Position numbers and translations under genes: made by a program. A stretch of DNA of 22,524 bases, from assembly GCA_044425555.1 (NCBI GenBank), contig JAWXVF010000028.1, positions 1 through 22,524 of the forward strand. The letters run 5' to 3'. The stretch is from Eubacteriales bacterium. Lineage in GTDB: Bacteria; Bacillota; Clostridia; Lachnospirales; Lachnospiraceae. How positions within the stretch are numbered: position 1 is the stretch's first letter; the number at the start of each line of letters is the position of its first letter. Shown here in pieces: positions 489 through 15,273 of this stretch. Below the pieces are notes generated by a model. The model had not been told where the DNA came from, ran no database searches, and saw only the letters and a program-made list of their open reading frames with translations.

Positions 489-517
489 TTGACAATTATA
501 TTGTTTTGAGGTATGAT
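489..517 (+). promoter_or_regulatory. Sigma-A type promoter: TTGACA, 17-nt spacer, TATGAT
   Basis: TTGACA at 489-494 and TATGAT at 512-517, with an exact 17-nt spacer. It lies about 90 nt upstream of the abi start codon. Confidence 0.5.
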
Positions 518-523
518 TATTAC

Positions 524-592
524 TAGTGATCGTGTTGTAGATACTTGCGAGGACTACAACCTAAAAAAACTTCCTTAGGGAAGTTTTTTTGC
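524..592 (+). ncRNA. Candidate short structured leader or small RNA upstream of the Abi_2 gene (abiF-motif-like or type III antitoxin-like)
   Basis: The predicted transcript from the promoter above contains a 7-bp hairpin, GTTGTAG (534-540) pairing with CTACAAC (554-560) around a 13-nt loop. A terminator hairpin follows immediately. No ORF is present. Confidence 0.4.
563..590 (+). terminator. Intrinsic (bidirectional-type) terminator between the promoter and the abi RBS
   Basis: AAAAAAA-CTTCC-TTAG-GGAAG-TTTTTTT is a perfect palindrome with a T7 tail. The RBS AGAGGA (595-600) and ATG 609 follow. Confidence 0.6.
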
Positions 593-608
593 TATAGAGG
601 AAATAATT

Positions 609-1553
609 ATGGATAACCAAAAAATTTTTTTTTCATACGATGAACAAATTCAAAAACTAAAAGATAAAGGTTTAATTATTAGTGATGAAATAGTTGCAGT
701 TCAGTTATTAAAGCGATATAGTTATTATGCCTTAATCTCTGGATATAAATACCCTTTTAAATCTAAAGACAATCAATATAAAATAAAAACAACAATAGAA
801 GATATATACACTATGTATAAATTCGATGAAGATTTAAGGCATTTATTTTTAAAGAATATATTGGAAGTAGAAAATCACATTAAATCATTAATATCATATG
901 CGTTTTGTTCGCAATATGGTGAGAGTCAATCATATTATTTAAGCAAAGATTGTTATAATAATATAAATGATAACCATGATGGTATAGATAAATTAATTGT
1001 AACTTTCCAAGGATATATTGATAGTCCAGGAAGTTATAGATATATGAGTTATCATCAAAAAAAGTATCATAACATACCATTGTGGGTCATGATGAAAGCA
1101 CTAACGTTGGGTTCAGTTTCTCGAATGTATAGTTTATTAGATTTTAGTATTCAAGGTACAATTAGTAAGGAGTTTGATGGAATCAATGAAAGTAGTTTAG
1201 GTAAGATGTTAGATTTATTGGCGAGGATTCGTAATGTTTCAGCACATAATGAGCGTCTATTCAATTATAGATATAAAAGAAGGACAATTAATGATACATT
1301 CATACATAGTGAATTAAATATACCCAAGAAAAACGGACAATATAGTAAAGGGAAGAATGATTTATTGGCGGTGATTATTGCTTTTCAATTTTTGCAAGAT
1401 AGAGAAGATTTTTTGCATTTAATCAAAACTCTAGATGATATGATAAATAAATTATGTAATGAAGTGAAAAATTTGGACAAATTACAAATTTATAAATATA
1501 TGGGTTTACCTAATAATTGGTTGCAAGTAGCAGATATAAGTAGAAATAGATAA
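609..1553 (+). CDS. Abortive-infection protein, Abi_2 family (AbiD/AbiF-like), HEPN ribonuclease-type
   Basis: 314-aa ORF with an RBS. It carries the Rx4H HEPN motif R-NVSA-H (nt 1230-1247) inside ARIRNVSAHNERLFN, typical of the Abi_2 family. N-terminal YDEQIxxLKxKGL and LKxxSYYxLxxY resemble AbiD/AbiF proteins. Confidence 0.8.
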   Translation: MDNQKIFFSYDEQIQKLKDKGLIISDEIVAVQLLKRYSYYALISGYKYPFKSKDNQYKIKTTIEDIYTMYKFDEDLRHLFLKNILEVENHIKSLISYAFCSQYGESQSYYLSKDCYNNINDNHDGIDKLIVTFQGYIDSPGSYRYMSYHQKKYHNIPLWVMMKALTLGSVSRMYSLLDFSIQGTISKEFDGINESSLGKMLDLLARIRNVSAHNERLFNYRYKRRTINDTFIHSELNIPKKNGQYSKGKNDLLAVIIAFQFLQDREDFLHLIKTLDDMINKLCNEVKNLDKLQIYKYMGLPNNWLQVADISRNR

Positions 1554-2573: not shown

Positions 2574-4622
2574 ATGGAGGAAAAATTGATAGATACAGAA
2601 TTAAAAAAACTAAAAGAAATGTTATGGAGTGCAGCCGATACCCTACGAGCTGATTCTGGGCTAAAATCAACAGAGTATGCAACACCTATATTAGGGCTTA
2701 TCTTCTTAAGATTTGCAGATAGTAAGTATCGTGAATATGAACATGAAATTCTAGAAGAATACAATCAAAATAAAGGTTCCAGAATGGAACGAGACATTAG
2801 TGAAATAGCAATTGAAAAATGTGGATTTTATTTACCAGATGAAGCAAGATACGATTATCTGCTTAATTTACCAGAAAGTGAAAATATTCCTGAAAAAGTA
2901 AAAGATGCTATGTGTATGGTTGAAAACTACACGAAAACACTTGCAGATACACTACCGAAAGATGAATATTATGCAGTAGATGGAAAAGATGGGAAAGCAG
3001 TTGTGAAAAGGTTATTAAAAGCCTTTAAAGACATACCAGATAATACCACTATTGATATTTTCGGTGAAATATATGAGTATTTCCTTGGTGAATTCGCCCT
3101 TGCAGAAGGACAAGGCGGTGGACAATTCTTCACACCACCATCAGTAGTAAAATATATGGTAGAGGTACTTGCACCTGTAGATGGGGAAATCTTTGATCCT
3201 GCTTGCGGAAGCGGAGGTATGTTTGTACAAGCTGCTCATTATATTCAAAAGCATAAGCAACAAGGCAATCCAATTAATCTACGTGCGTATGGTGTGGAAA
3301 AAGACAAATCCACAGTGAATCTTGCTAAGATTAATATGGTACTTCATAACATTAGAGGTACCATTACAGAAGCCAATAGTTATTATGCAGATCCTTATGA
3401 TTGTTTGGGGAAATTCGATTATGTTATGGCGAATCCTCCATTTAATGTAGATGGGGTGGAACTAGAAGCTGTAAAAAATCAGGAACGCTTTAATACATAT
3501 GGAGTACCACAGAATAAAACCAAAAGTAAAAAATCAGCAGGAGAAACAGTTCCTAATGGAAATTATCTATGGATTAATATGTTCGCTACTTCCCTAAAAG
3601 AAAACAAAGGAAAAGCAGCCCTTGTTATGGCAAATTCTGCCTCCGATGCAGGAAATAGTGAAAAAGAAATCCGTATGAAGTTAATAGAAAGTGGCGTGGT
3701 AAGTCAAATGGTTACTTTACCGTCCAACATGTTTTCCACAGTGACCTTGCCAGCAACCCTTTGGTTTTTCGATGCTAGCCATAAAAAGAAAGAGGAAATA
3801 TTATTCATAGATGCAAGGAATATATTTACACAAGTGGATAGAGCCCATAGAAAATTCACAGAAGAGCAGATTAAAAATCTTGCCATGATATCAAGGTTAT
3901 ACGAAGAAAAAAATGAAGAATATACGGTGTTACTAGACGAATACCAAGGAGAAGTATTAGAGAAATCTGCCTTATACCATGAATTACAAAGTACATGTTC
4001 GGAATTAGTGTATCATCTGTATAAAGATTCTGCTAATGAAATGGTAAAAAAATACAACGATAAAACGTATGTGCCATCTAAAAAAGTGCACGATTTCAAT
4101 GGGGTAGAAGATTATCATTTAATAGAAAAAGATTGTATCCATACAGTGGAACAAGCAAGTGCCATACAATCTATGGTAGAAAATCATACGAAAGAATTAA
4201 AGGAGCAGTTTCACGAGGTAGAAAGAGGAATTCATCAGAACCTAGATACTGCTAGCTATAAAAAAGAAATCATGGAAGCTGTTGATATTTTAAATCAATT
4301 GGATGTGTTAAAAGATGAAATTGTGTATTTCTTAGACCAGTGCATTTGGTTACAAGAACGTTTTCCACAAGGGATTTACCAAGATGTAACAGGACTCTGC
4401 AAAGTAGCCACTCTAGAAGGGGAAGATGGAATCAAAGACCAAGATTATTCTCTCAATCCGGGTAGATATGTAGGTGTTGTTATTGAAGATGATGGTATGA
4501 CAGAAGAGGAATTCAAGGAAGAAATGAGGAGTTTATATGTGGAACTTGAAATGCTAAACCAAGATGCAAGGGAGTTGGAGAGTAAGATAGGGGAGAATTT
4601 GAAGGGGTTGTTTAATGAATAG
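2574..4622 (+). CDS. hsdM: Type I restriction-modification system, N6-adenine DNA methyltransferase subunit M (long form, 682 aa)
   Basis: HsdM_N-like LWSAADTLR...LGLIFLRF, SAM motif I DPACGSGGMF, catalytic NPPF (nt 3432-3443) and C-terminal DYSLNPGRYVG. The real start may be in-frame TTG 2586, which is preceded by GGAGG. Confidence 0.95.
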   Translation: MEEKLIDTELKKLKEMLWSAADTLRADSGLKSTEYATPILGLIFLRFADSKYREYEHEILEEYNQNKGSRMERDISEIAIEKCGFYLPDEARYDYLLNLPESENIPEKVKDAMCMVENYTKTLADTLPKDEYYAVDGKDGKAVVKRLLKAFKDIPDNTTIDIFGEIYEYFLGEFALAEGQGGGQFFTPPSVVKYMVEVLAPVDGEIFDPACGSGGMFVQAAHYIQKHKQQGNPINLRAYGVEKDKSTVNLAKINMVLHNIRGTITEANSYYADPYDCLGKFDYVMANPPFNVDGVELEAVKNQERFNTYGVPQNKTKSKKSAGETVPNGNYLWINMFATSLKENKGKAALVMANSASDAGNSEKEIRMKLIESGVVSQMVTLPSNMFSTVTLPATLWFFDASHKKKEEILFIDARNIFTQVDRAHRKFTEEQIKNLAMISRLYEEKNEEYTVLLDEYQGEVLEKSALYHELQSTCSELVYHLYKDSANEMVKKYNDKTYVPSKKVHDFNGVEDYHLIEKDCIHTVEQASAIQSMVENHTKELKEQFHEVERGIHQNLDTASYKKEIMEAVDILNQLDVLKDEIVYFLDQCIWLQERFPQGIYQDVTGLCKVATLEGEDGIKDQDYSLNPGRYVGVVIEDDGMTEEEFKEEMRSLYVELEMLNQDARELESKIGENLKGLFNE

Positions 4623-4899
4623 TGAATTTTTAATTGACATTACAGAATCAAATAATTTTATAATGAATAATAAACCTAATGGTAAATTTGATAGAAAAAA
4701 AGGAATTGCGTTAATTGAGAAGCATAAATCTAAGGATATTGTTCTTGCTATGATTAACTCACCATCGAATAAGTCATTTATTCTATATGAGAATGCTGAT
4801 AATGAATTAATATATAATGTGTTATGTGAAATTAATGTCTATTTGTCTTGTAAAGAAATAATAAATGAAAATACACAGGATGGAGATGCAAATGACTAA
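4615..4899 (+). CDS. Hypothetical 94-aa protein embedded between hsdM and hsdS
   Basis: Its ATG overlaps the hsdM stop (ATGAATAG), and its stop overlaps a likely hsdS start (ATGACTAA). I recognise no domain. The C-terminus is acidic. Confidence 0.55.
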   Translation: MNSEFLIDITESNNFIMNNKPNGKFDRKKGIALIEKHKSKDIVLAMINSPSNKSFILYENADNELIYNVLCEINVYLSCKEIINENTQDGDAND

Positions 4900-6028
4900 A
4901 ATAAAAGTCAATAAATATGTGACTTTGGATAAAGTAGCATATTTTGCTAATGAGAAAATTGAATCAAAATATTTGAACAATAAAAACTATATTTCAACTG
5001 AAAATATGTTGCCAGATAAAAGTGGGATAACTATTTCTTTAAGTAATCCACAAGGGAACAATAAAAGTAAATTTTCGGAAGATGATATTCTTTTGTCAAA
5101 TATACGACCATATTTCAGAAAAATATGGTTTGCAAATATATCTGGTGGATGTTCTAATGATATATTAGTCTTAAAAGCAAAAGATAATATTTGTCCTAAG
5201 TTTTTATATTATGCGTTATCAGATAATAATTTTTTTAATTATGCTACAGTTACTTCCAAAGGTACTAAAATGCCTAGGGGAAGTAAACATGCAATAATGA
5301 AATATTTAGTTCCTAATTTAGACCAATCAGAACAAAAACGTATTACTAATATCCTATCAACCTACGATGATTTAATAGAAAACAACAATCGTAGAATAGA
5401 ACTACTAGAAAAATCAGCACAAGAGTTATACAAAGAGTGGTTTGTACGTTTTCGTTTTCCTAATTATGAGAATACAAAGTTTGTGAATGGATTGCCAGAA
5501 GGGTGGAGCAAAGGGAAATTTAAAAATAATGTAAAATATATTACGGGTAAATTGGATTCTAATGCCATGAAAGATGAGGGCGAGTTTAGTTTTTACACAT
5601 GTGCAAAGACAATTTATAAGACAAATACTTTTTGTTTTGATGGAGAGTGTGTATTATTAGGTGGTAATAATGCAACGGGAGATTTTTCATTGTTTTATGC
5701 TAATGAAAAATTAGATGCTTATCAGAGAACCTATATTATTACGCCACTTAATAATAATATAGGTTGTTCATATATATATTTCGTGTTGAAAAATTATCTT
5801 ATGCATTTGAAGCATGCTAGCATTGGAGCTACAACTAAATTTTTAACAAAGTCTATATTAGATAAAATTAACATAGTATTACCCGATAAGATGATAGCAA
5901 ATCAATTTAATAAAATTGTTTCTTCAATATTTTTAGAGATGAGTAAACTAAAATTAAACAATGTGAACCTAAAAAAACAGCGTGATTTATTATTACCACG
6001 CTTAATAAGCGGTAAACTGGAGGTGTAA
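4865..6028 (+). CDS. hsdS: Type I R-M specificity subunit S
   Basis: Two variable target-recognition halves are separated by the conserved central helix LIENNNRRIELLEKSAQELYKEWFVRFRFP. The C-terminal conserved helix is LKKQRDLLLPRLISGKL. The likely true start is ATG 4892, 6 nt after GGAG. Confidence 0.9.
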   Translation: MKIHRMEMQMTKIKVNKYVTLDKVAYFANEKIESKYLNNKNYISTENMLPDKSGITISLSNPQGNNKSKFSEDDILLSNIRPYFRKIWFANISGGCSNDILVLKAKDNICPKFLYYALSDNNFFNYATVTSKGTKMPRGSKHAIMKYLVPNLDQSEQKRITNILSTYDDLIENNNRRIELLEKSAQELYKEWFVRFRFPNYENTKFVNGLPEGWSKGKFKNNVKYITGKLDSNAMKDEGEFSFYTCAKTIYKTNTFCFDGECVLLGGNNATGDFSLFYANEKLDAYQRTYIITPLNNNIGCSYIYFVLKNYLMHLKHASIGATTKFLTKSILDKINIVLPDKMIANQFNKIVSSIFLEMSKLKLNNVNLKKQRDLLLPRLISGKLEV

Positions 6029-6029
6029 A

Positions 6030-6557
6030 ATGGCTGATAAAAATCAAACTCATGTGATAGAAAATGTATTTGATAATCTAAAAAAGATTACGCCCGTATT
6101 AATTACTATTGATATTTGTACAGGATTAATTATATTTTTGCCAAGTCATATGCTGGAAAGAATGAAATTGAATTTAATTTCAGATGAGTGGTTGTTATAT
6201 ATTAGCCTAATATTTTTATTTAGTGTATCATTAACAATTGTTATTATATGCTATAATATTGTGAAAGCCAAGCTATTGGAATTTCAGGAAATAAACTTGA
6301 GAAAAAAATTAAGGATTAGGTATATTAATTTAAGTAGTAGCCATAAGTCTCTTATTAGAAACTTATTAAATACTAAAGAGAAAAGTATAGAATTAAATGC
6401 TTATTCAGGAGATGTTGTGTACTTAGAAAATAATATTTTCATTATGTCGTCATCTAACATGACAGGTAGGTACGGTCAGAGTGAAATGTATTTACAATAT
6501 GTGCCACAACCATGGTTATTAGATTTATATAATAAAGAACCAGAATTATTTCAATAA
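6030..6557 (+). CDS. 175-aa two-transmembrane protein embedded between hsdS and hsdR; possibly SieB-like superinfection-exclusion family (tentative)
   Basis: It starts 1 nt after the hsdS stop. Two hydrophobic helices are present (VLITIDICTGLIIFLP and WLLYISLIFLFSVSLTIVIICYNIV), followed by a soluble C-terminal domain. The layout resembles what I recall of PF14163-type proteins. Confidence 0.6.
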   Translation: MADKNQTHVIENVFDNLKKITPVLITIDICTGLIIFLPSHMLERMKLNLISDEWLLYISLIFLFSVSLTIVIICYNIVKAKLLEFQEINLRKKLRIRYINLSSSHKSLIRNLLNTKEKSIELNAYSGDVVYLENNIFIMSSSNMTGRYGQSEMYLQYVPQPWLLDLYNKEPELFQ

Positions 6558-6569
6558 AGGAGGGACACC

Positions 6570-9500
6570 ATGCCAAGCTTCATATCCGAAGACATGATCG
6601 AACAAGCAACCATTCAAAAATTAGTTGAATGTAACCAATACAATTCCATTAATTGCTACACTTCCGATCCTGATACTTTGGAGGATGGAAGTGGTAGGGA
6701 ACATAAAAAGCAAGTGGTGTTACCTACTGTTTTACGTGAGAGTTTAGTACGGTTGAATAAACAGTTACCTATTTCCCTTGTAGAAAAAGTTGCCAAAGAA
6801 TTAGAGAAAACACCCACAACCGCTATGGTAATGGAGGCTAATTACCAATCTTATCAAACCATAAGAAATGGTATTGATGTAGAATATGATGAAAACGGCA
6901 AGAAGAAAAAAGGGAAACTAAAAGTAATTGATTTTACCCATCCAGATCATAATGATTTTACAGTTGTTTCCCAATTATGGATTCGAGGTGAGGTTCATTG
7001 GCGTAGACCAGATTTGATTCTCTATGTAAATGGATTGCCAATGGTATTTATAGAGTTGAAAAACTCTAATATTAAGGTGAAGAATGCCTATGACAAGAAT
7101 CTAATGGATTATAAAAAAGATATCCCTTATTTATTTCAGTATAACCAAGTTTGTGTATTATCCAATGGAACGGAGACGAGGATTGGTAGTTTTGCTGCTG
7201 GGTATGAACACTTTTTTGAGTGGCTGAAAATAGAAGATGAAAAAGAAAATCCCAATCGGAAAGAAATCAAAGACAATGCCATTAGCCTAGAATACTTAAT
7301 AAATGGCTTACTACGAAAAGAAGTATTAATAGATTATATAGAAAATTTTATCTTATACGATAGACAACGAATCAAATTAATTGCCAAGAACCATCAATAT
7401 TTAGGAGTGAATAATGCCTATGAAGCCTTTTTAAAGAGAGAACACCTAGAAGGAAAGTTAGGTGTATTTTGGCATACCCAAGGGAGTGGAAAGAGTTATT
7501 CCATGGTAATGCTTACAAGAAAAATAAAGCATAAAGTAAATGGGAATTTTACTTTTCTAGTAGTGACAGATCGAGTAGATTTAGATGATCAAATATGGAA
7601 AAATTTTTATCGTACAGAATTTATTTCTAAAGATGAAAAAGTTCGCCCTGCAACTGGTGCAAAACTTCGTGAAGAATTAAAGAATCATAAAACCATCTTA
7701 TTTACTACGATTTATAAGTTTAAATACGATAAAGGGAAAGAGTATCCTATTTTATCAGAGCGTGATGATATTGTTGTGATTGTAGATGAAGCACACAGAA
7801 CTCAATATAAGGATTTAGCAGAGAATATGCGAAAAGGATTACCTAATGCACAATTTCTAGCATTTACAGGAACTCCTTTATTAGGAGCAAAGCGATTAAC
7901 CAACGCTTGGTTTGGAGATTATGTTTCAGAATATAATTTTACCCAATCAGTCAATGATCATGTAACAGTTCCATTATATTATATCAATGGTATGAAAGAG
8001 GTACGATTGCAAAATGATTTTCTTGATAGTGATTTGTCAGAAATATTGGAAGATGAAAATCTGTCAGATTCGGAACGAGAAAGACTTGAAAATCAGTATG
8101 CCAAGGAATTAGAAGTGATTAAGCGTGATGATCGATTAAAAACCATAGCAAGACACATTGCATACCATTTTCCACGTAGAGGATTTCTAGGAAAAGGTAT
8201 GGTAATTTCCGTTGATAAATTTACCGTAGTTCGCATGTATGATATGGTAAATAATTACTGGAAGGAAGAAATTAAAAATCTAAATGTGGAGATTACGAAC
8301 ACAGCTGATGAAAATAAGCGTATAGAACTAAAAAGAATGGTAGATTATATGCGAAAAGTACAAATGGCAGTTGTAGTAAGTGGAGAAGAGAAAGAAGAAG
8401 AGAAATTTCAAAAACAAGAACTCACCATAAAAGTACATCGTGATAAAATGAATGCAGTCGATGAAAATGGAATGGATATAGAAGATAATTTTAAAGATGT
8501 CAATCACCCTTTAAGCCTAGTGTTTGTATGTTCTATGTGGTTGACGGGGTTTGACGCACCTTCCATATCTACTTTATATTTGGACAAGCCTATGAAGGGA
8601 CATACTTTGATGCAAACCATTGCTAGAGCTAATCGAGTGTACCCAGAGAAAACAAGTGGCATTGTCATTGGCTATTTAGATGTGTTTAAATCTTTGAAAA
8701 AAGCATTACTAGACTATGCAGCAGGGGATGAGGAAGAGCTACCAGTTAAGAATATTGAGAAATTGTACGAACAGCTTTTAGAAGCTATTGAAATGACGAA
8801 AACCTTTTGTACTACACAAGGCATTGATTTAGCAAGTGTAGAGGAGAAAGAGGATGTGTTTGCCAATTTATCTAAGTTAGAAGAATTTGCCAATATCCTT
8901 GTATCCAATGATGAAGTGAAAAATGAATTTCGAGTTCTTGCTAATACCGTTGGGAATTTATATGAAGCATTACGACCAGATATTTTCAAAATGGATTTTC
9001 GTGCCAATGAAAAAGAAATCATACTATACTTAAAAGGAATCCTTGATGGGAAAATAAGACCTGAAAAGATAGAGGCTGCTAAGTATAAGATAGATGAGTT
9101 GTTAAATCAAAGTATAGTTGCAGAAGAAACGACTACCTATGATGTGGGAAATTCTCAGGAAACTTTACCTGCCATTACCACGTCAGAACCTATTGATTTA
9201 TCGAAAATTGATATAGATGCATTAAAAGAGCAAATGCAGAAAGCAAAATATAAGAATCTAGAAATAGCCAATCTACGTGAGCATATTGAGAAAATTTTGG
9301 CACAGATGATAAAGAAAAATAGAACCCGTACTAGTTTTGCAGAACGATTCCGTCATATTATAGATGAATACAATGCAGGAGGGGCATACAATGATGAGTT
9401 TTATAAAAAGTTATTAGAATTAATGCGAGAATTGCAAGAGGAAGAACGTAGGCATATTAGGGAAGACTTAAGTGAGGAAGAACTGGAATTTTACGATTTG

Positions 9501-9776
9501 TTACAAAAAGATAAATTAACGAAGGAAGAATTAAAGCGTGTAAAACTTGCTGCTAGTACACTCTACCAAACGTTGCTTGCGAAAAAAGAAGAATTATTCG
9601 TAGTAGGGTGGGAAAAAGACGAACAGCCAAAAGAAAAAGTAAGAAAAGAAATTATGGCAATCTTAAATGAATATCTTCCGGATAGTTACAACCGTGAAAT
9701 TTTTGCTAATAAATCGGATGTAGTCTTCTATCATATTGTGGACCAAGCGTTGATGGGATTGAATTGGATTGCTTAG
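6570..9776 (+). CDS. hsdR: Type I R-M restriction subunit R (nuclease plus SF2 helicase/translocase)
   Basis: AGGAGGG RBS. PD-(D/E)xK-type motif PDLILYVNGLPMVFIELK, Walker A HTQGSGKS, DEAH-type VVIVDEAHRTQ, motif VI QTIARANR, and a long helical C-terminal domain. Confidence 0.95.
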   Translation: MPSFISEDMIEQATIQKLVECNQYNSINCYTSDPDTLEDGSGREHKKQVVLPTVLRESLVRLNKQLPISLVEKVAKELEKTPTTAMVMEANYQSYQTIRNGIDVEYDENGKKKKGKLKVIDFTHPDHNDFTVVSQLWIRGEVHWRRPDLILYVNGLPMVFIELKNSNIKVKNAYDKNLMDYKKDIPYLFQYNQVCVLSNGTETRIGSFAAGYEHFFEWLKIEDEKENPNRKEIKDNAISLEYLINGLLRKEVLIDYIENFILYDRQRIKLIAKNHQYLGVNNAYEAFLKREHLEGKLGVFWHTQGSGKSYSMVMLTRKIKHKVNGNFTFLVVTDRVDLDDQIWKNFYRTEFISKDEKVRPATGAKLREELKNHKTILFTTIYKFKYDKGKEYPILSERDDIVVIVDEAHRTQYKDLAENMRKGLPNAQFLAFTGTPLLGAKRLTNAWFGDYVSEYNFTQSVNDHVTVPLYYINGMKEVRLQNDFLDSDLSEILEDENLSDSERERLENQYAKELEVIKRDDRLKTIARHIAYHFPRRGFLGKGMVISVDKFTVVRMYDMVNNYWKEEIKNLNVEITNTADENKRIELKRMVDYMRKVQMAVVVSGEEKEEEKFQKQELTIKVHRDKMNAVDENGMDIEDNFKDVNHPLSLVFVCSMWLTGFDAPSISTLYLDKPMKGHTLMQTIARANRVYPEKTSGIVIGYLDVFKSLKKALLDYAAGDEEELPVKNIEKLYEQLLEAIEMTKTFCTTQGIDLASVEEKEDVFANLSKLEEFANILVSNDEVKNEFRVLANTVGNLYEALRPDIFKMDFRANEKEIILYLKGILDGKIRPEKIEAAKYKIDELLNQSIVAEETTTYDVGNSQETLPAITTSEPIDLSKIDIDALKEQMQKAKYKNLEIANLREHIEKILAQMIKKNRTRTSFAERFRHIIDEYNAGGAYNDEFYKKLLELMRELQEEERRHIREDLSEEELEFYDLLQKDKLTKEELKRVKLAASTLYQTLLAKKEELFVVGWEKDEQPKEKVRKEIMAILNEYLPDSYNREIFANKSDVVFYHIVDQALMGLNWIA

Positions 9777-9781
9777 AGTAA

Positions 9782-10570
9782 ATGCATGAAAATAAGAGGG
9801 AGGTAATTATGATTGAGAAGACACAAAATGTATTAATATCAACCTTATTAGGTAAGGAACTAATTTTTGAAATTGATAATGATGATTTAAAACCAAAAAC
9901 AATTGAATTGTTCAAGAGGTTTATTTCTCATATTCCGATTGTAGAAATTCAAAATGAAACCTTTTATAGAGCCAGAGTCATTGCTGATGAGGACGGTATG
10001 GAACAAGGAATTGTGAGAGAAAATGGAATTCCAATTACTGGATATAATACAATATATTCAGGTGTTCCGCCAAAAGAAGTGATAAAGCATGAAGGTAGAG
10101 TAAATCGAATAAATGAACAGGTATTATATATTGCAGAAGATCAAGAAACAGCAATTCGTGAACTAAAAGATGAGAAATCTAAATATTTTTCTGTTGCAGA
10201 ATATTTTGTAAAAGAGCCAATTAAGGTGTTTGATTGTTCTGCATTTACGAAAGAACAACTAGAGGAGACATTGTCACCAAGTATTAGAGATGAGTTTGAA
10301 AATAAATATCAGATGTCATTGACAATATTGTATATAAAGCTACAAGAACATTTAACGTTTGGACCATCAAAAAAAGATGGCGAAAAGGAGTATAAATTTT
10401 CCTTAAAAATGATTGATTTCATGAAGGAATATCATAATATATCAGGAGTTAAATATGTTTCGTCGTACACATATAAATCTAATGTAGCAATTTGGGATGA
10501 TAATAAATTTTTGAAATGTGTAAATAGTATGGTTGAACGAAAGAAGGGGAAGCATAACAAAGACAATTAA
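9782..10570 (+). CDS. RES-domain protein (NAD+-targeting toxin superfamily) with no adjacent Xre-type antitoxin
   Basis: The R/E/S signature is in the canonical order: FYRAR..., EGRVNRINEQVLYIAEDQETAIRE, and GVKYVSSYTYKSNVAIWD. The probable true start is ATG 9809, 5 nt after AGAGGGAGG. Confidence 0.75.
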   Translation: MHENKREVIMIEKTQNVLISTLLGKELIFEIDNDDLKPKTIELFKRFISHIPIVEIQNETFYRARVIADEDGMEQGIVRENGIPITGYNTIYSGVPPKEVIKHEGRVNRINEQVLYIAEDQETAIRELKDEKSKYFSVAEYFVKEPIKVFDCSAFTKEQLEETLSPSIRDEFENKYQMSLTILYIKLQEHLTFGPSKKDGEKEYKFSLKMIDFMKEYHNISGVKYVSSYTYKSNVAIWDDNKFLKCVNSMVERKKGKHNKDN

Positions 10571-10613: not shown

Positions 10614-11816
10614 ATGAAATTAAGAAAAATTAACTTTAAAAACCACCCCATTTTAAAAGATTTACAAGTAAGTTTGGAAGATGAAAAAGGGGAAATAGTA
10701 AATACAGTTATATTTATTGGGGATAATGGAAGTGGAAAAACAAGTATTCTTAGAGGAATTTTGGAGAACTTTCAATCTTCTAAGGTTGAAAAATTCCTAA
10801 AAGGAACAGATTTGGATAGTTTAGAGCTTTCTTTTGGAAAAGAACTACTCAAAACAATACCAGATAATGCATTGTCAGAATATTCTGTGATATATTGGGG
10901 AATAAAAAATTCTGTTTTTGCTATTGACGAATCTGATCAGGATGCAACAAGTATAGGAAAGATTGTATTCATGCCAACGGAAATTAATTTTTCTATGGCA
11001 ACTGCAATAGATACAAGAAAAGAAATTCCAGATCAATTTATTAATATTATTGATCAAAAGATTGCAAATGATATATCTTCTTTTGTTGCTACAGCAATTG
11101 AAACAGAAGTATTTAAAAATGAAGATGTGGCAGTAAAAGAAAGTATGAAAAAAGTTTGTGATGAAATCAATTCTATTTTTCAATGTATGGATTTAGAGAT
11201 TGAACTTGTAGGATTATCTAAAGATGAGAAGAAGCAACCTATTTTCAAGAATCACAATAATGATACGTTTGCAATTGAGGATTTATCATCAGGAGAAAAG
11301 CAACTATTCATACGTGCGTTATCTTTAAAGTTTTTAAACATTAATGATTCTATTATTCTTATTGATGAACCTGAAATTTCGCTACACCCACAATGGCAAC
11401 GAAAGATTATCAGCGTATATGAAAGTATTGGTAGGAACAATCAATTAATTATTGCAACTCATTCGCCCCATGTCATAGGAAATATTAGAAAAGAGCAATT
11501 ACGAGTTTTACATCGAGATCATAATGGTATTCAGATAGTGCCAACGGAGGAAGTAGAACGAACATATGGACAGACTATAGAATCCATATTAACTCACAAT
11601 ATGGGACTTGAAAGTGTACGAAATGAAGAATTACAATTTAAAATAGAACAAATTCAAAAATTATTACGAAATGAGAACGCCTTAGAAAATAAGGAATTTC
11701 AAGAATTATTAATAGATATTTCAGAACACCTAGATGATTCCGATGTAGAGATGGCACTTATCAATGCACAAATAAAACGGATGAAAATGAGGGGTACTAG
11801 AAATGTTGAACAATAA
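10614..11816 (+). CDS. ptuA: ABC/SMC-like AAA ATPase, Septu PtuA-like
   Basis: Walker A GDNGSGKTS, signature LSSGEKQ, Walker B IILIDEPEISLHPQWQ, H-loop IIATHSPH. An HNH partner gene overlaps downstream. Confidence 0.75.
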   Translation: MKLRKINFKNHPILKDLQVSLEDEKGEIVNTVIFIGDNGSGKTSILRGILENFQSSKVEKFLKGTDLDSLELSFGKELLKTIPDNALSEYSVIYWGIKNSVFAIDESDQDATSIGKIVFMPTEINFSMATAIDTRKEIPDQFINIIDQKIANDISSFVATAIETEVFKNEDVAVKESMKKVCDEINSIFQCMDLEIELVGLSKDEKKQPIFKNHNNDTFAIEDLSSGEKQLFIRALSLKFLNINDSIILIDEPEISLHPQWQRKIISVYESIGRNNQLIIATHSPHVIGNIRKEQLRVLHRDHNGIQIVPTEEVERTYGQTIESILTHNMGLESVRNEELQFKIEQIQKLLRNENALENKEFQELLIDISEHLDDSDVEMALINAQIKRMKMRGTRNVEQ

Positions 11817-12375
11817 GAAAGCAAATGAGCCATGCGAGTATACGGATTTGGCAAAGAAAGTATCTAATTATCAGGAGTTTGATACTCATATAAAAGAGAT
11901 ATTGAGAGATAATTTCATTTGTGAGCAAGATTCTTACTGTCCATATTGTGAGCGAATTATTGAGAATAATGTTAACAGTTGTCATATTGAACATATAAAG
12001 CCACAATCTGCTTATCCTAATCAGAGCAAAGAGTATACCAATATGATTTTATCTTGTAATAATAAAAATACATGTGGGATACGAAAAGGGAATCAATACC
12101 ATGAGGATTTTATAAATCCTACGATAGAAAATCCAACATTTTATTTAAAATACGATTTAGCGTCAGGTGAAGTTTATTCCGTTGATGATAATCCTAAGGG
12201 AGAGTACACCATTAAAGTTTTGAACTTAAATGACAAAAAACTGAAACAAATGAGAAGGAATAAAATTTTTACTTATATAAATTTAGATAGTTCCATGCAA
12301 TTAAAACTTATAAATTGGGAACTAGAGAATTTGTATGGGAGTAACTTGATTTTCCGCAAATGCATTTGGAATTAA
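11803..12375 (+). CDS. ptuB: HNH endonuclease, Septu PtuB-like / TIGR02646-like (retron-type HNH)
   Basis: It overlaps the ATPase gene by 14 nt. The Cys/His motifs are CPYCERI...SCHIEHIKPQS...NMILSCNNKNTCGIRKGN. Confidence 0.75.
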   Translation: MLNNKKANEPCEYTDLAKKVSNYQEFDTHIKEILRDNFICEQDSYCPYCERIIENNVNSCHIEHIKPQSAYPNQSKEYTNMILSCNNKNTCGIRKGNQYHEDFINPTIENPTFYLKYDLASGEVYSVDDNPKGEYTIKVLNLNDKKLKQMRRNKIFTYINLDSSMQLKLINWELENLYGSNLIFRKCIWN

Positions 12376-13824: not shown

Positions 13825-14814
13825 ATGGAACACACAAACTATGTATTTTATCGTTTGCCAAAGGTATTGTTTACCAATGAGAAATTACACCAATTATCAA
13901 TTGAGGCAAAATTATTGTATACAGTTATGCTAGATCGTCTTTCTTTATCCATAATCAATCAGTGGAAAGATAAGGAAGGAGAAGTATACATTTATTTTAC
14001 TATTGAACATGGGTGTGAACTTTTAGGTAAGAGTTATTCGAAAATATCCAAAGTAATGGCAGAATTAGAAGCACTCAAGTTGATTGTTCGTAAACGCCAA
14101 GGGCAGGGGAAACCATCTAGGATTTATGTGAAAACAGATATGTTACAGACACCTATCATAGAAGCAGAACCTACAAATATAGCGGACAAGATAGGAGATA
14201 TACAAGTATCAAGAGATAGTTCTTTCACGGTTCAAGACCTATTAGAAACAGATACGAATAAGACTAATAGGAATCAAAATAATACCAATAAGATAGAGTC
14301 AATCCATCTATCCTATGAGAATGGGATAGAAGAAGACACTTGTTTAGAAGATGTTATTTTCAAAGAATTGTTAGAGGAACAAACACTACCTAGAGAATAT
14401 CTTTACCAAGAGGAGAAATTAAGGATTGCCTTTCAGATTTTAACGGAACATGAAATATTTGTTAGGAATAGTAAAAAGAATTATGATTCCCAACAAGATT
14501 TAAGTATTTTGAATTTATTGATACAAGCATTATGTGAAATGCTAACCGAGAAAAAGCCTATGCAGATAAAGGGCTATTTAGTTACGGTTAGTCAAGTCTA
14601 CAAAAAATTAATAACCTATCTTAGCTTTGAACATCATCATCCATCTATGTATACATTTTATACAACTGTGATGGATGACTACAAAACAGGCGCTATTCAT
14701 AGTGAAATAAAACATCATCTTGGCTATATGAAAGCATGTATCTGGAATGTTTTGCTAGTAGGAGACATTAGCCTTCAAACGAAATTGTTAAATCACTTTG
14801 GAGGGCAAATGTAA
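13825..14814 (+). CDS. Replication initiator protein, RepA_N family
   Basis: The N-terminus YVFYRLPKVLF...LSIEAKLLYTVMLDRLSLS...VRKRQGQGKPSRIYV is the typical RepA_N signature. RBS AAAGGGGGA. Confidence 0.85.
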   Translation: MEHTNYVFYRLPKVLFTNEKLHQLSIEAKLLYTVMLDRLSLSIINQWKDKEGEVYIYFTIEHGCELLGKSYSKISKVMAELEALKLIVRKRQGQGKPSRIYVKTDMLQTPIIEAEPTNIADKIGDIQVSRDSSFTVQDLLETDTNKTNRNQNNTNKIESIHLSYENGIEEDTCLEDVIFKELLEEQTLPREYLYQEEKLRIAFQILTEHEIFVRNSKKNYDSQQDLSILNLLIQALCEMLTEKKPMQIKGYLVTVSQVYKKLITYLSFEHHHPSMYTFYTTVMDDYKTGAIHSEIKHHLGYMKACIWNVLLVGDISLQTKLLNHFGGQM

Positions 14815-14937: not shown

Positions 14938-15273
14938 ATGGAGAAGTGGAAAATGAATAAAACAAATAGTATTACCTTTCGTGTATCAGACCATGATAAA
15001 AAATCAATTGTAGCAAGAGCGAAAAAAGGGAAGATGAAAACTTCTGATTTCTGTCGTTATGCTGTATTAGGAAAGGAAGTACGACACATTGAAGGGCTAA
15101 AGGAATTGATATTTGAATTAAATAAGATTGGAAATAATCTAAACCAATTAACGGTATTATGTCACCAAAGACGAGTGGATAATCCTAATTTAGAAGAAAT
15201 AACTTACCAATTAAATAGCGTATTTGATGTAATCGTAATGGTACTAGGAGGTGATGACTATAGCAATTGTTAA
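14938..15273 (+). CDS. mobC: Relaxosome accessory protein MobC
   Basis: The ELNKIGNNLNQLTVL motif is typical of the MobC family, with a ribbon-helix-helix-like N-terminus (ITFRVSDHDKKSI). The likely start is ATG 14953, after GGAGAAGTGG. Confidence 0.85.
   Translation: MEKWKMNKTNSITFRVSDHDKKSIVARAKKGKMKTSDFCRYAVLGKEVRHIEGLKELIFELNKIGNNLNQLTVLCHQRRVDNPNLEEITYQLNSVFDVIVMVLGGDDYSNC

Follow-up and report, generated by a model that had tools for sequence, protein, structure and literature searches.

A probable AbiF/AbiD-type RNA-protein toxin-antitoxin module with an RNA partner apparently outside Rfam

Near the left end of the DNA examined here (a stretch of 22,524 nucleotides from a Lachnospiraceae genome assembly, which we refer to as the window) a short cassette stands directly in front of a gene of the AbiD/AbiF group, raising the question as to whether this cassette specifies an RNA that acts together with the Abi protein and, if so, whether that RNA belongs to a family already described. 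The original prediction had placed here a promoter, an RNA lacking an open reading frame, a hairpin, a terminator and the abi gene, and every one of these features is present in the window at the position given for it. The features are as follows.

489–517, + strand: predicted sigma-70/SigA-type promoter, with a −35 box TTGACA at 489–494, a 17-nt spacer and a −10 box TATGAT at 512–517.
525–533, + strand: single-stranded 5′ tail AGUGAUCGU, the predicted RNA 5′ end, unpaired in the consensus fold.
525–564, + strand: full match (60.4 bits, E 3.5e-15) to R1, the covariance model built in the present analysis for the window RNA motif.
532–561, + strand: hairpin of the RNA 5′ domain, consisting of P1, an internal loop and an apical P2.
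563–590, + strand: intrinsic terminator with a 12-bp stem that includes A-U pairs, a UUAG loop and a run of seven U.
596–602, + strand: ribosome-binding site AGAGGAA of abi, 3′ of the terminator and unpaired in the full-leader consensus fold.
609–1553, + strand: abi gene, encoding a 314-aa Abi_2 (AbiD/AbiF group) HEPN protein, a predicted RNase toxin (Pfam, PADLOC, phmmer, Foldseek).
1230–1247, + strand: HEPN catalytic motif R208-N-V-S-A-H213 (Rx4H), residues 208–213.

With 11 of 12 consensus positions matched, the predicted promoter is the top promoter-like site within positions 1–2600; transcription would be expected to start at about A525, 6–7 nt past the −10 box. No ORF is found in the leader (525–608), in which stops occur in all three forward frames. 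The terminator arms, AAAAAAACTTCC at 563–574 and GGAAGTTTTTTT at 579–590 on either side of a TTAG loop, are 12 nt each and 100% complementary (−13.8 kcal/mol), and in the RNAfold fold the stem has 13 bp through the addition of U562; termination at this site would leave an RNA of ∼66–68 nt. A terminator scanner missed this element only because A/U pairs carry the stem through the U-tract. Since just 18 nt lie between the end of the terminator and the abi ATG at 609, there is no room for a separate abi promoter. Permissive Rfam matches over 300–700 (STnc370, Phe_leader, csRNA and others) were set aside, because it is the generic terminator hairpin that produces them all and they lie far below gathering scores. 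The abi gene heads a defence island next to a type I RM system, and a megablast search of 1–2600 against plasmid and phage collections found no near-identical DNA.

AT-rich DNA commonly contains promoter-like hexamers and hairpins, and such an arrangement could be fortuitous or a relic, with a terminator that may be part of an upstream or convergent gene lying out of view. Promoter-like hexamers are indeed not enriched (17 seen versus 19 expected from shuffled sequence), the A-tract, stem and U-tract look bidirectional, and the window begins just 488 nt upstream of the cassette. Chance is nonetheless excluded because the same cassette occurs in register ahead of all 19 homologues found via the protein, which have 50–82% amino acid identity (20 of 20 loci with the window), and it does so in flanks that vary and are unrelated among these loci. 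The shared order is TTGACA-17-TATxxT, a near-invariant 5′ AGUGAUCGUG, a 7–8 bp hairpin, a covarying terminator, the RBS and abi; TTGACA-17-TAxxxT stands at a fixed distance from the RNA in all 20 loci and the promoter spacer is only 41% identical, and nucleotide identity is 86.8% in the RNA 5′ domain versus 66.1% in the abi coding sequence. A gene-blind DNA pattern scan recovered the RNA motif from at least 120 metagenome contigs, mostly of the human gut, as independent occurrences linked to Abi. With the covariation of P1 also significant, these comparative data effectively refute a chance or relic origin, which we regard as vanishingly improbable.

The RNA 5′ domain is a two-tier hairpin in which GTTGTAG (534–540) pairs with CTACAAC (554–560) to form the 7 bp of P1, which G532–C561 can extend across a U533 bulge to give 7–8 bp; above it lie an internal loop of AUA (541–543) facing A553, and P2, in which CUU (544–546) pairs with AGG (550–552) around a GCG triloop (547–549). 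The leader fold has −21 kcal/mol with z = −2.6. A check for covariation across homologous loci had been proposed, and it bears the hairpin out: all four variable pairs of P1 are compensated and 99.8% of cells are paired, values that none of 500 shuffles reach, and slid controls give 25–50%. Support for P2 is weak, because the changes there are one-sided only. A hairpin with a U-rich tract lies at the terminator position in all loci examined, and five of its stem pairs have compensatory changes; hairpin and terminator stem are thus under selection at the RNA level. The R1 match is the sole copy of the motif in the window, the runner-up scoring 5.6 bits. The GUUG...CAAC stem ends presumably recall Cas13b direct repeats, a likeness to which we give no weight.

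The 5′ tail is unchanged in 19 of the 20 protein-ascertained loci, with a single T-to-A change in the other (L014), and AGUGAACGUG is retained in a Leptotrichia plasmid homologue with 32% amino acid identity. Because it is invariant the tail gives no covariation signal, and selection at the DNA level is therefore possible for this part; it also overlaps the predicted transcription start, so that AGTGATCGTG at +1 might be a regulator's operator and the remainder an ordinary hairpin and terminator without a specific RNA function. We consider this explanation very unlikely, as the adjoining stem evolves by compensatory changes indicative of selection on RNA pairing, the 10-mer AGTGATCGTG is not palindromic beyond GATC, and no regulator gene is consistently adjacent in the differing upstream flanks. 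When the whole window was searched for a pairing partner of the tail, as a second copy or complement of AGTGATCGTG with at most one mismatch, nothing significant was found; the single 1-mismatch copy (+ strand, 17920) is no more than shuffled sequence yields. A literature search with the 10-mer returned unrelated primers and miRNAs only.

The Abi protein itself scores 149.4 bits against Pfam PF07751 Abi_2 (cut-off 25.6; 1.8e-43), is called AbiD by PADLOC (4.3e-56), and is matched by phmmer (4.8e-11) to 8VZ6_A, the PbAbiF of PbAbiF-AbiFr, a Prevotellaceae AbiF with an ncRNA (PDB 8VZ6; Zilberzwige-Tal et al., Cell 2025, as summarised in PMC12737573 and PMC12373285). Its AlphaFold2 model has a pLDDT of 92.7, and 8VZ6_A ('PbAbiF dimer bound to ncRNA') is the sole significant Foldseek match in the PDB (E 7e-11, TM 0.69–0.73), the second having an E of 0.3. 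The HEPN Rx4H motif, which had been predicted, is there as RNVSAH; it aligns with RNSCCH in PbAbiF, and R208, N209 and H213 are invariant among 48 homologues. Judged by sequence and predicted fold, the protein is a homologue of PbAbiF, and no match to ToxN or AbiQ is found in Pfam, PADLOC or the PDB. We also considered CRISPR-Cas13, but the window contains no repeat-spacer array, there is one catalytic HEPN motif in the 314 aa whereas a Cas13 effector has two HEPN domains, and Cas13 structures appear as non-significant Foldseek matches only (E of 2 or more).

There is tight linkage between the RNA and this Abi clade, which is widespread among Lachnospiraceae and other Clostridia MAGs. In the 78 contigs with sufficient downstream sequence, the RNA is followed directly by an intact Abi in 57 and by a decayed Abi in 15, and decay of abi with the RNA cassette kept is seen in 21; that the cassette outlasts abi fits a toxin whose loss is tolerated. 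Three remoter Abi homologues (L021, L022 and L178; 40–41% identity) carry RNA variants that can still be recognised, and at least one lineage (L032, L142) has the RNA ahead of a different, Apea-like HEPN family. There are also free-standing copies of the RNA without abi in which promoter and terminator are intact (for example L126 and L101), although these orphans could be mere relics. A relaxed pattern scan of viral contigs gave 70 loci, of which only L178 and the known L025 are real by covariance model and context, the others being chance matches.

These data also bear on whether the leader acts solely in cis, setting the level of abi expression by transcription attenuation or autoregulation, for example through modulation of termination by Abi or a host factor, with the short RNA a by-product lacking antitoxin activity in trans. 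The position of the terminator between promoter and gene would suit such a role, as would the single RNA copy without a repeat array, and in the RCd22-AbiFCd system of C. difficile, where a SigA promoter gives an ncRNA ending at a terminator and read-through gives the abiF mRNA, the authors describe a 'riboswitch-like' premature-termination layer (PMC12373285). An alternative helix between the 5′ arm and the apical part of the 5′ domain could be seen in the same light, as it is paired in 92% of cells and, in competition with P1, supplies the MFE structure of 19 of 59 leaders. We have rejected it as a conserved structure, however: it exists, yet 16 of 48 sequences break it, and they do so at the most variable position, exactly where P1 has compensatory changes. 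In the full-leader consensus fold P1, P2 and the terminator form and the RBS stays free; neither an antiterminator nor a pairing against the RBS is conserved. An exclusively cis-acting leader also sits poorly with the abi-less copies, and with the two characterised relatives, in both of which the RNA antitoxin binds the protein directly (PMC12373285; PMC12737573 on 8VZ6), the RCd22 RNA neutralising the AbiFCd toxin in cis and in trans (PMC12373285). We think this explanation unlikely.

The reading that we prefer, and consider probable, is that the locus encodes a toxin-antitoxin (abortive-infection) module of the AbiF/AbiD type, made up of a protein and an RNA partner from a motif class outside Rfam, the small structured RNA upstream of abi being most likely the RNA antitoxin. 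This type III TA-like interpretation is well supported by analogy with PbAbiF and AbiF-RCd22, because the cassette is conserved and covarying and the protein matches PbAbiF. By the same analogy, the constitutive SigA-type promoter would start transcription at the predicted site and the majority of transcripts would end at the terminator, yielding the small RNA, whose 5′ domain (525–561) would present the single-stranded tail followed by the two-tier hairpin; occasional read-through would produce an abi mRNA that begins with this RNA domain. Abi would be a HEPN RNase with R208 and H213 as catalytic residues, probably a homodimer like PbAbiF, which the RNA would bind and hold inactive in cis and in trans, with the terminator maintaining an excess of RNA over protein. 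Infection may then upset this balance, leaving free Abi to cleave RNA and arrest the cell. A shared binding mode would be an extrapolation, because the RNA fails the RF03085 model and has no evident sequence in common with the RNA of either characterised system.

A further proposal, which we put forward tentatively and think somewhat doubtful, is that the AGUGAUCGUG-hairpin RNA constitutes, next to RF03085 and with no structural relationship to it, a second class of RNA antitoxin to the HEPN toxins of the AbiF family, with the invariant 5′ 9-mer occupying or gating the HEPN site and the RNA behaving as a semi-independent module; PbAbiFr is reported to use an internal-loop bulge at the HEPN site. 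If so, the persistence of the RNA with its own promoter after loss of abi, and its position before the Apea-like HEPN genes, would reflect this independence, and HEPN toxins would have repeatedly exchanged or re-invented their RNA partners, a plasticity of the kind that the proposed path leading from AbiF towards Cas13 crRNA would require.

The demonstration that AbiF-type systems are RNA-protein toxin-antitoxins is recent, as is the proposal that Cas13 descends from them, and both characterised examples use RF03085. As the clade described here keeps the gene layout with a different RNA, it offers a natural comparison for how HEPN RNases recognise and are silenced by an inhibitory RNA, and for how this changes in evolution. 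There is also a practical side, in that Rfam annotation misses the RNA entirely, so each Abi gene of this clade will pass as a single-gene system, and such genes may be unclonable or misbehave if expressed without their leader.

The locus can be compared with several known systems. Its logic is that of the classical type III TA systems (ToxIN, AbiQ/antiQ, CptIN and TenpIN), which likewise act in abortive infection, and as in these an intrinsic terminator lies between the predicted antitoxin and toxin genes. ToxN and AbiQ, however, have a non-HEPN fold, unlike the HEPN protein of the window. Classical type III antitoxins are also tandem arrays of 34–50-nt repeats that are processed by the toxin (PMC12373285), whereas no tandem repeat is found near 489–608 and the window RNA is a single unit. 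The type III layout originally proposed holds with respect to AbiF systems, and for ToxIN and AbiQ it is a loose analogy only, given the single RNA copy and the HEPN toxin.

The original prediction had further suggested that the RNA fits the abiF RNA motif, and this is not borne out. The RF03085 covariance model (gathering threshold 37 bits) has no match in the window at gathering score, in 300–700 at E≤10, or in the 19 homologous loci, and it recovers the positive controls, phiC2 RCd22 (37.6 bits) and the region upstream of PbAbiF (58.5 and 55.7 bits); conversely, R1 finds nothing in the RF03085 loci. The RF03085 motif was reportedly described by Weinberg et al. in 2017. It has a 6-bp P1, a 1-nt bulge, a 3-bp P2, a loop of ∼11 nt and a 3′-side internal loop CAAAUC, whereas in the window RNA a 9-nt 5′ tail is combined with a P1 of 7–8 bp, a 3-nt 5′-side loop opposite 1 nt, a 3-bp P2 and a 3-nt loop. 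The conserved nucleotides of RF03085, GCUCAAAU in the 3′-side internal loop, are absent from the window RNA, in which the AGUGAUCGU tail and the A-rich 5′-side loop are conserved instead. Both are small hairpins encoded on the strand of the Abi_2/abiF gene and directly ahead of it, and in both the stem has two tiers, the upper of 3 bp. Judged by these sequence models, the window RNA is a distinct motif class that is absent from Rfam.

The AbiD/F group has been described as two-component protein and RNA systems (PMC13064643), and the link between AbiF and the ancestry of Cas13, raised in the original prediction, is present in the literature (PMC12737573, PMC13064643). For the AbiD group it is reported that upstream sequences are more conserved than the genes and are required for function and for tolerance of the gene. 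R1 has no match upstream of the pNP40 AbiF, nor upstream of a homologue on a lactococcal plasmid; the pNP40 leader has an RF03085-like architecture by eye, and pNP40 AbiF is ∼25% identical to the window protein. PbAbiF and the window Abi are full-length homologues with an amino acid identity of only about 19%, and each has one short structured ncRNA directly upstream on the same strand; the PbAbiF RNA, however, is a textbook RF03085 hairpin, CCCGCCAAGCCUCUCAACGAUGCUCAAAUGUGCGGGU (the match of 58.5 bits), and its locus has a Bacteroidota-type promoter with no strong terminator evident ahead of the gene. The phi027/phiC2 AbiFCd-RCd22 locus differs in that RCd22 contains two RF03085 motifs in ∼100–130 nt rather than one non-RF03085 hairpin in ∼66 nt, that the proteins are about 25% identical, and that the AbiFCd gene lies in a prophage lysis module rather than in a defence island. 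It nonetheless shares with the window the order of SigA promoter, ncRNA, Rho-independent terminator, RBS and Abi_2 gene, in which a toxin mRNA would arise only by read-through, as well as a Bacillota host and a location on a mobile element.

The original prediction placed a promoter, a hairpin, a terminator and an ORF-less leader directly upstream of abi, a gene for a HEPN protein predicted to be an RNase toxin, and each of these is found there:

489-517, + strand: sigma-70-like promoter (-35 TTGACA at 489-494, 17-nt spacer, -10 TATGAT at 512-517; 11 of 12 positions match)
534-560, + strand: 7-bp hairpin (534-540 with 554-560), its stem lengthened by G532-C561 over bulged U533
563-590, + strand: terminator (inverted repeat of 12 bp without mismatches, UUAG loop, 7-U run)
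596-602, + strand: ribosome binding site (RBS) AGAGGAA, 5′ of the abi ATG at 609
609-1553, + strand: abi ORF, 314 aa (Pfam Abi_2 1.8e-43, PADLOC AbiD 4.3e-56)

The promoter is the top-ranking sigma-70-like site of a promoter scan within the first 2.6 kb, the terminator ends 18 nt before the abi ATG, and the leader (525-608) contains no ORF and has stops in all of its frames. A terminator scanner did not report 563-590, because A/U pairs carry the stem through the U-tract and leave no U-tail beyond it. Shuffling yields no fewer promoter-like hexamers (19) than are observed (17), so the evidence from this single sequence is weak, and the comparative data are decisive for the cassette.

The 488 nt 5′ of the promoter are gene-less and contain repeated TTTGCAAAAA / TTGCAAAAT units at 230-239 and 271-280 (region 215-300), together with a 12-nt inverted repeat (266-277 with 284-295). 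Many homologous loci (e.g. L005, L008, L009) have a conserved box, GCATATAATAnTATTGCTGA, about 95 nt 5′ of the -35, and the window carries AGAGCATATAATAAAATATGG at 458-478; a short inverted repeat, GACAnnnnTGTC, lies 3′ of the box in several loci. The box may act as a second promoter or as an operator, or may mark an element boundary.

Nineteen homologous loci, mostly from Lachnospiraceae MAGs, were located by protein alone (50-82% amino-acid identity to the window Abi), and all 19 have the same cassette in register. They share TTGACA, a 17-nt spacer, TAxxxT, 6-7 nt and then AGTGATCGTGT; next come a hairpin, ACC without variation, a second, GC-rich hairpin carrying a U-rich tail, the RBS and finally the ATG. 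Averaged over pairs of loci, the 37-nt RNA 5′ domain is 86.8% identical, the coding sequence 66.1% (nucleotide) and the promoter spacer 41%. The RNAalifold consensus consists of the lower stem P1 (534-540/554-560 in the window), a 3-bp apical helix P2 and the terminator, and P1 pairing is unbroken throughout. The cassette elements and their geometry are thus conserved, and these comparative data rule out a chance juxtaposition. A Leptotrichia plasmid homologue (32% identity) keeps the 5′ AGUGAACGUG and has a different hairpin.

Recognizable RNA variants are also seen at distant loci of 40-41% identity (L022, L021, L178). One of these, L021 (phage-like contig MT835668.1, human faeces), has two RNA-plus-abi modules in tandem, with motifs at 232-271 and 1322-1361; the second match to R1, the covariance model built here for the window RNA, scores 36.6 bits directly 3′ of the first abi, close to the contig end.

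A DNA pattern scan with the stem positions left free matches at least 120 metagenome contigs, mostly human gut, and one viral contig fits it as well. In the set drawn from these matches the scan itself fixed the specified bases, and the free positions alone count as evidence. Among the matches listed, 78 contigs extend 1150 nt or more beyond the RNA start; an intact Abi lies directly downstream in 57, a truncated or frameshifted one in 15, and none in six. The RNA and Abi are tightly linked. The cassette is intact in all contigs with a decayed or missing abi among the matches listed, and this recurrent decay behind a kept RNA is compatible with, but does not prove, a toxin whose loss is tolerated.

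Truncated genes are found, for example, in L044, L073, L095, L105 and L131, and abi is absent or lost in L126, L101, L070, L128 and L076; some remnants retain residues 193-308 or 208-307 alone, and in some the ATG is changed to AGG. In L126 a perfect promoter, RNA and terminator precede an abi cut down to 17 codons, followed by VbhA-like and DUF6088 genes. L046, L077 and L138 have an Abi_2 gene behind the promoter and RNA cassette. In L032 (motif 1136-1175, minus strand) and likewise in L142, the gene behind this cassette encodes a 309-aa HEPN_Apea-like protein (PF18739, E 2e-7, RNRIGH motif), which could reflect cargo replacement behind a kept RNA, or one RNA common to HEPN families.

The hairpin is conserved in the alignment of homologous upstream regions and its stem covaries. 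Across 59 distinct sequences from the pattern-derived set, 99.8% of P1 cells are paired, and each of the four pairs that vary has double compensatory changes; pair 15:36, for instance, occurs as G-C 36 times and as A-U 19 times, and pair 17:34 as A-U 46 times and as G-C 13 times. None of 500 shuffles matches this covariation, and slid controls pair at 25-50%. P1 and the terminator stem are under RNA-level selection; P2 has one-sided changes only and its support is weak. The invariant 5′ tail could be a DNA-level operator, which would account for its invariance but not for the covarying stem.

The apical CCUGCGAGG (541-552) and the P1 3′ arm CCUGCGACC (553-561) are near-repeats in most homologues (alignment A3 columns 11-16 and 22-27), which gives the P1 5′ arm two possible pairing partners. 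The alternative helix, between the 5′ arm and apical CUGCGA, might reflect a two-state RNA or be a by-product. The main alternative to an RNA partner for Abi, a purely cis-acting attenuator, draws on this helix, in which 92% of cells pair and which is the MFE structure of 19 of the 59 leaders (not of the window leader). But a third of sequences break the helix precisely at the site of P1 compensation, and the consensus fold includes neither an antiterminator nor RBS sequestration.

The window RNA had also been said to fit the abiF RNA motif (Rfam RF03085), and this identification fails. At gathering score RF03085 matches nowhere in the window. A 401-nt search covering the leader at E<=10 does not list it either, and it is missing from the 19 homologous loci, while the same tool finds RCd22, the RNA of the C. 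difficile phiC2 RNA-toxin pair, at 37.6 bits. Directly 5′ of the Prevotellaceae PbAbiF gene, located via the 8VZ6 sequence, RF03085 matches at 58.5 and 55.7 bits; both experimentally characterized AbiF systems therefore use RF03085 RNAs. The geometry differs: the RF03085 consensus, CCCGCCAAGCCUCUCAACGAUGCUCAAAUCGGCGGGU, pairs 6 bp in P1 and 3 bp in P2, has a bulge of 1 nt and a loop of 11 nt, and conserves an internal loop on the 3′ side, whereas the window RNA, AGUGAUCGU-G-U-GUUGUAG-AUA-CUU-GCG-AGG-A-CUACAAC-C, starts with a single-stranded 9-nt 5′ tail, carries the larger strand of its internal loop on the 5′ side and has an apical loop of 3 nt. R1, trained on 48 sequences, scores 60.4 bits at 525-564, has no second copy within the window, and finds nothing in RF03085 loci, streptococcal and Listeria phage loci or lactococcal plasmid loci. 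The window RNA is not an RF03085 member. Rfam 15 lacks the motif and a full-text search with the 10-mer returned nothing relevant; the survey in the supplement of the primary Cell 2025 paper may already list RNAs of this class.

About 80 nt 5′ of the L. lactis pNP40 AbiF gene (L148) is CUUCCCA-CGC...GCG-CAUCA-UGGAAAG plus a U-run, of RF03085-like architecture by eye. This leader scores under the Rfam reporting level, so RF03085 may under-detect its own class.

The Abi protein belongs to the Abi_2 / AbiD-F group, and a protein identical to it is recorded from a Eubacteriales MAG. The HEPN Rx4H motif claimed for it is present as RNVSAH at residues 208-213, is invariant across 48 homologues and aligns with the PbAbiF catalytic motif. 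The sole significant PDB match of its AlphaFold2 model (pLDDT 92.7) is 8VZ6_A, 'PbAbiF dimer bound to ncRNA' (E 7e-11, TM 0.69-0.73; second-best match E 0.3). Abi is homologous to PbAbiF.

The abi gene heads a defence island, and further mobile-element genes follow:

1791-2219: DUF4869 gene, with its own promoter-like site at 1604-1632
2574-4622: hsdM, type I RM
4865-6028: hsdS, type I RM
6030-6557: SieB-like superinfection-exclusion gene, inserted between hsdS and hsdR
6570-9776: hsdR, type I RM
9782-10570: RES-domain protein
10614-11816: PtuA-like ATPase
11803-12375: 190-aa partner ORF, Septu-like, overlapping the PtuA-like ATPase gene
13825-14814: RepA_N replication initiator
14938-15273: NikA/MobC mobilisation genes

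Because RepA_N and NikA/MobC genes are present, the contig is probably a plasmid or mobilisable element carrying the island.

The best-supported reading, by analogy, is that the locus is an AbiF-type RNA-protein toxin-antitoxin and abortive-infection module. From RCd22-AbiFCd (PMC12373285) and PbAbiF (PMC12737573, PMC13064643) we infer the transcription start, termination and read-through, as well as RNA-protein binding, toxicity and trigger. A constitutive promoter would chiefly yield a terminated RNA of about 66 nt, and read-through an abi mRNA that keeps the RNA domain in cis; the HEPN RNase would be bound and silenced by the RNA, and perturbation at the time of infection would set it free. 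The concept is already known; what current annotation lacks is this distinct and widespread RNA partner, which makes a useful comparative handle. Of the type III-like reading proposed originally, the layout and logic hold and the RF03085 identity does not. The module would work like AbiF-AbiFr and RCd22-AbiFCd, but it is not a classical ToxIN-type type III toxin-antitoxin system: a repeat array is missing, and the toxin is of the HEPN and not of the ToxN type.
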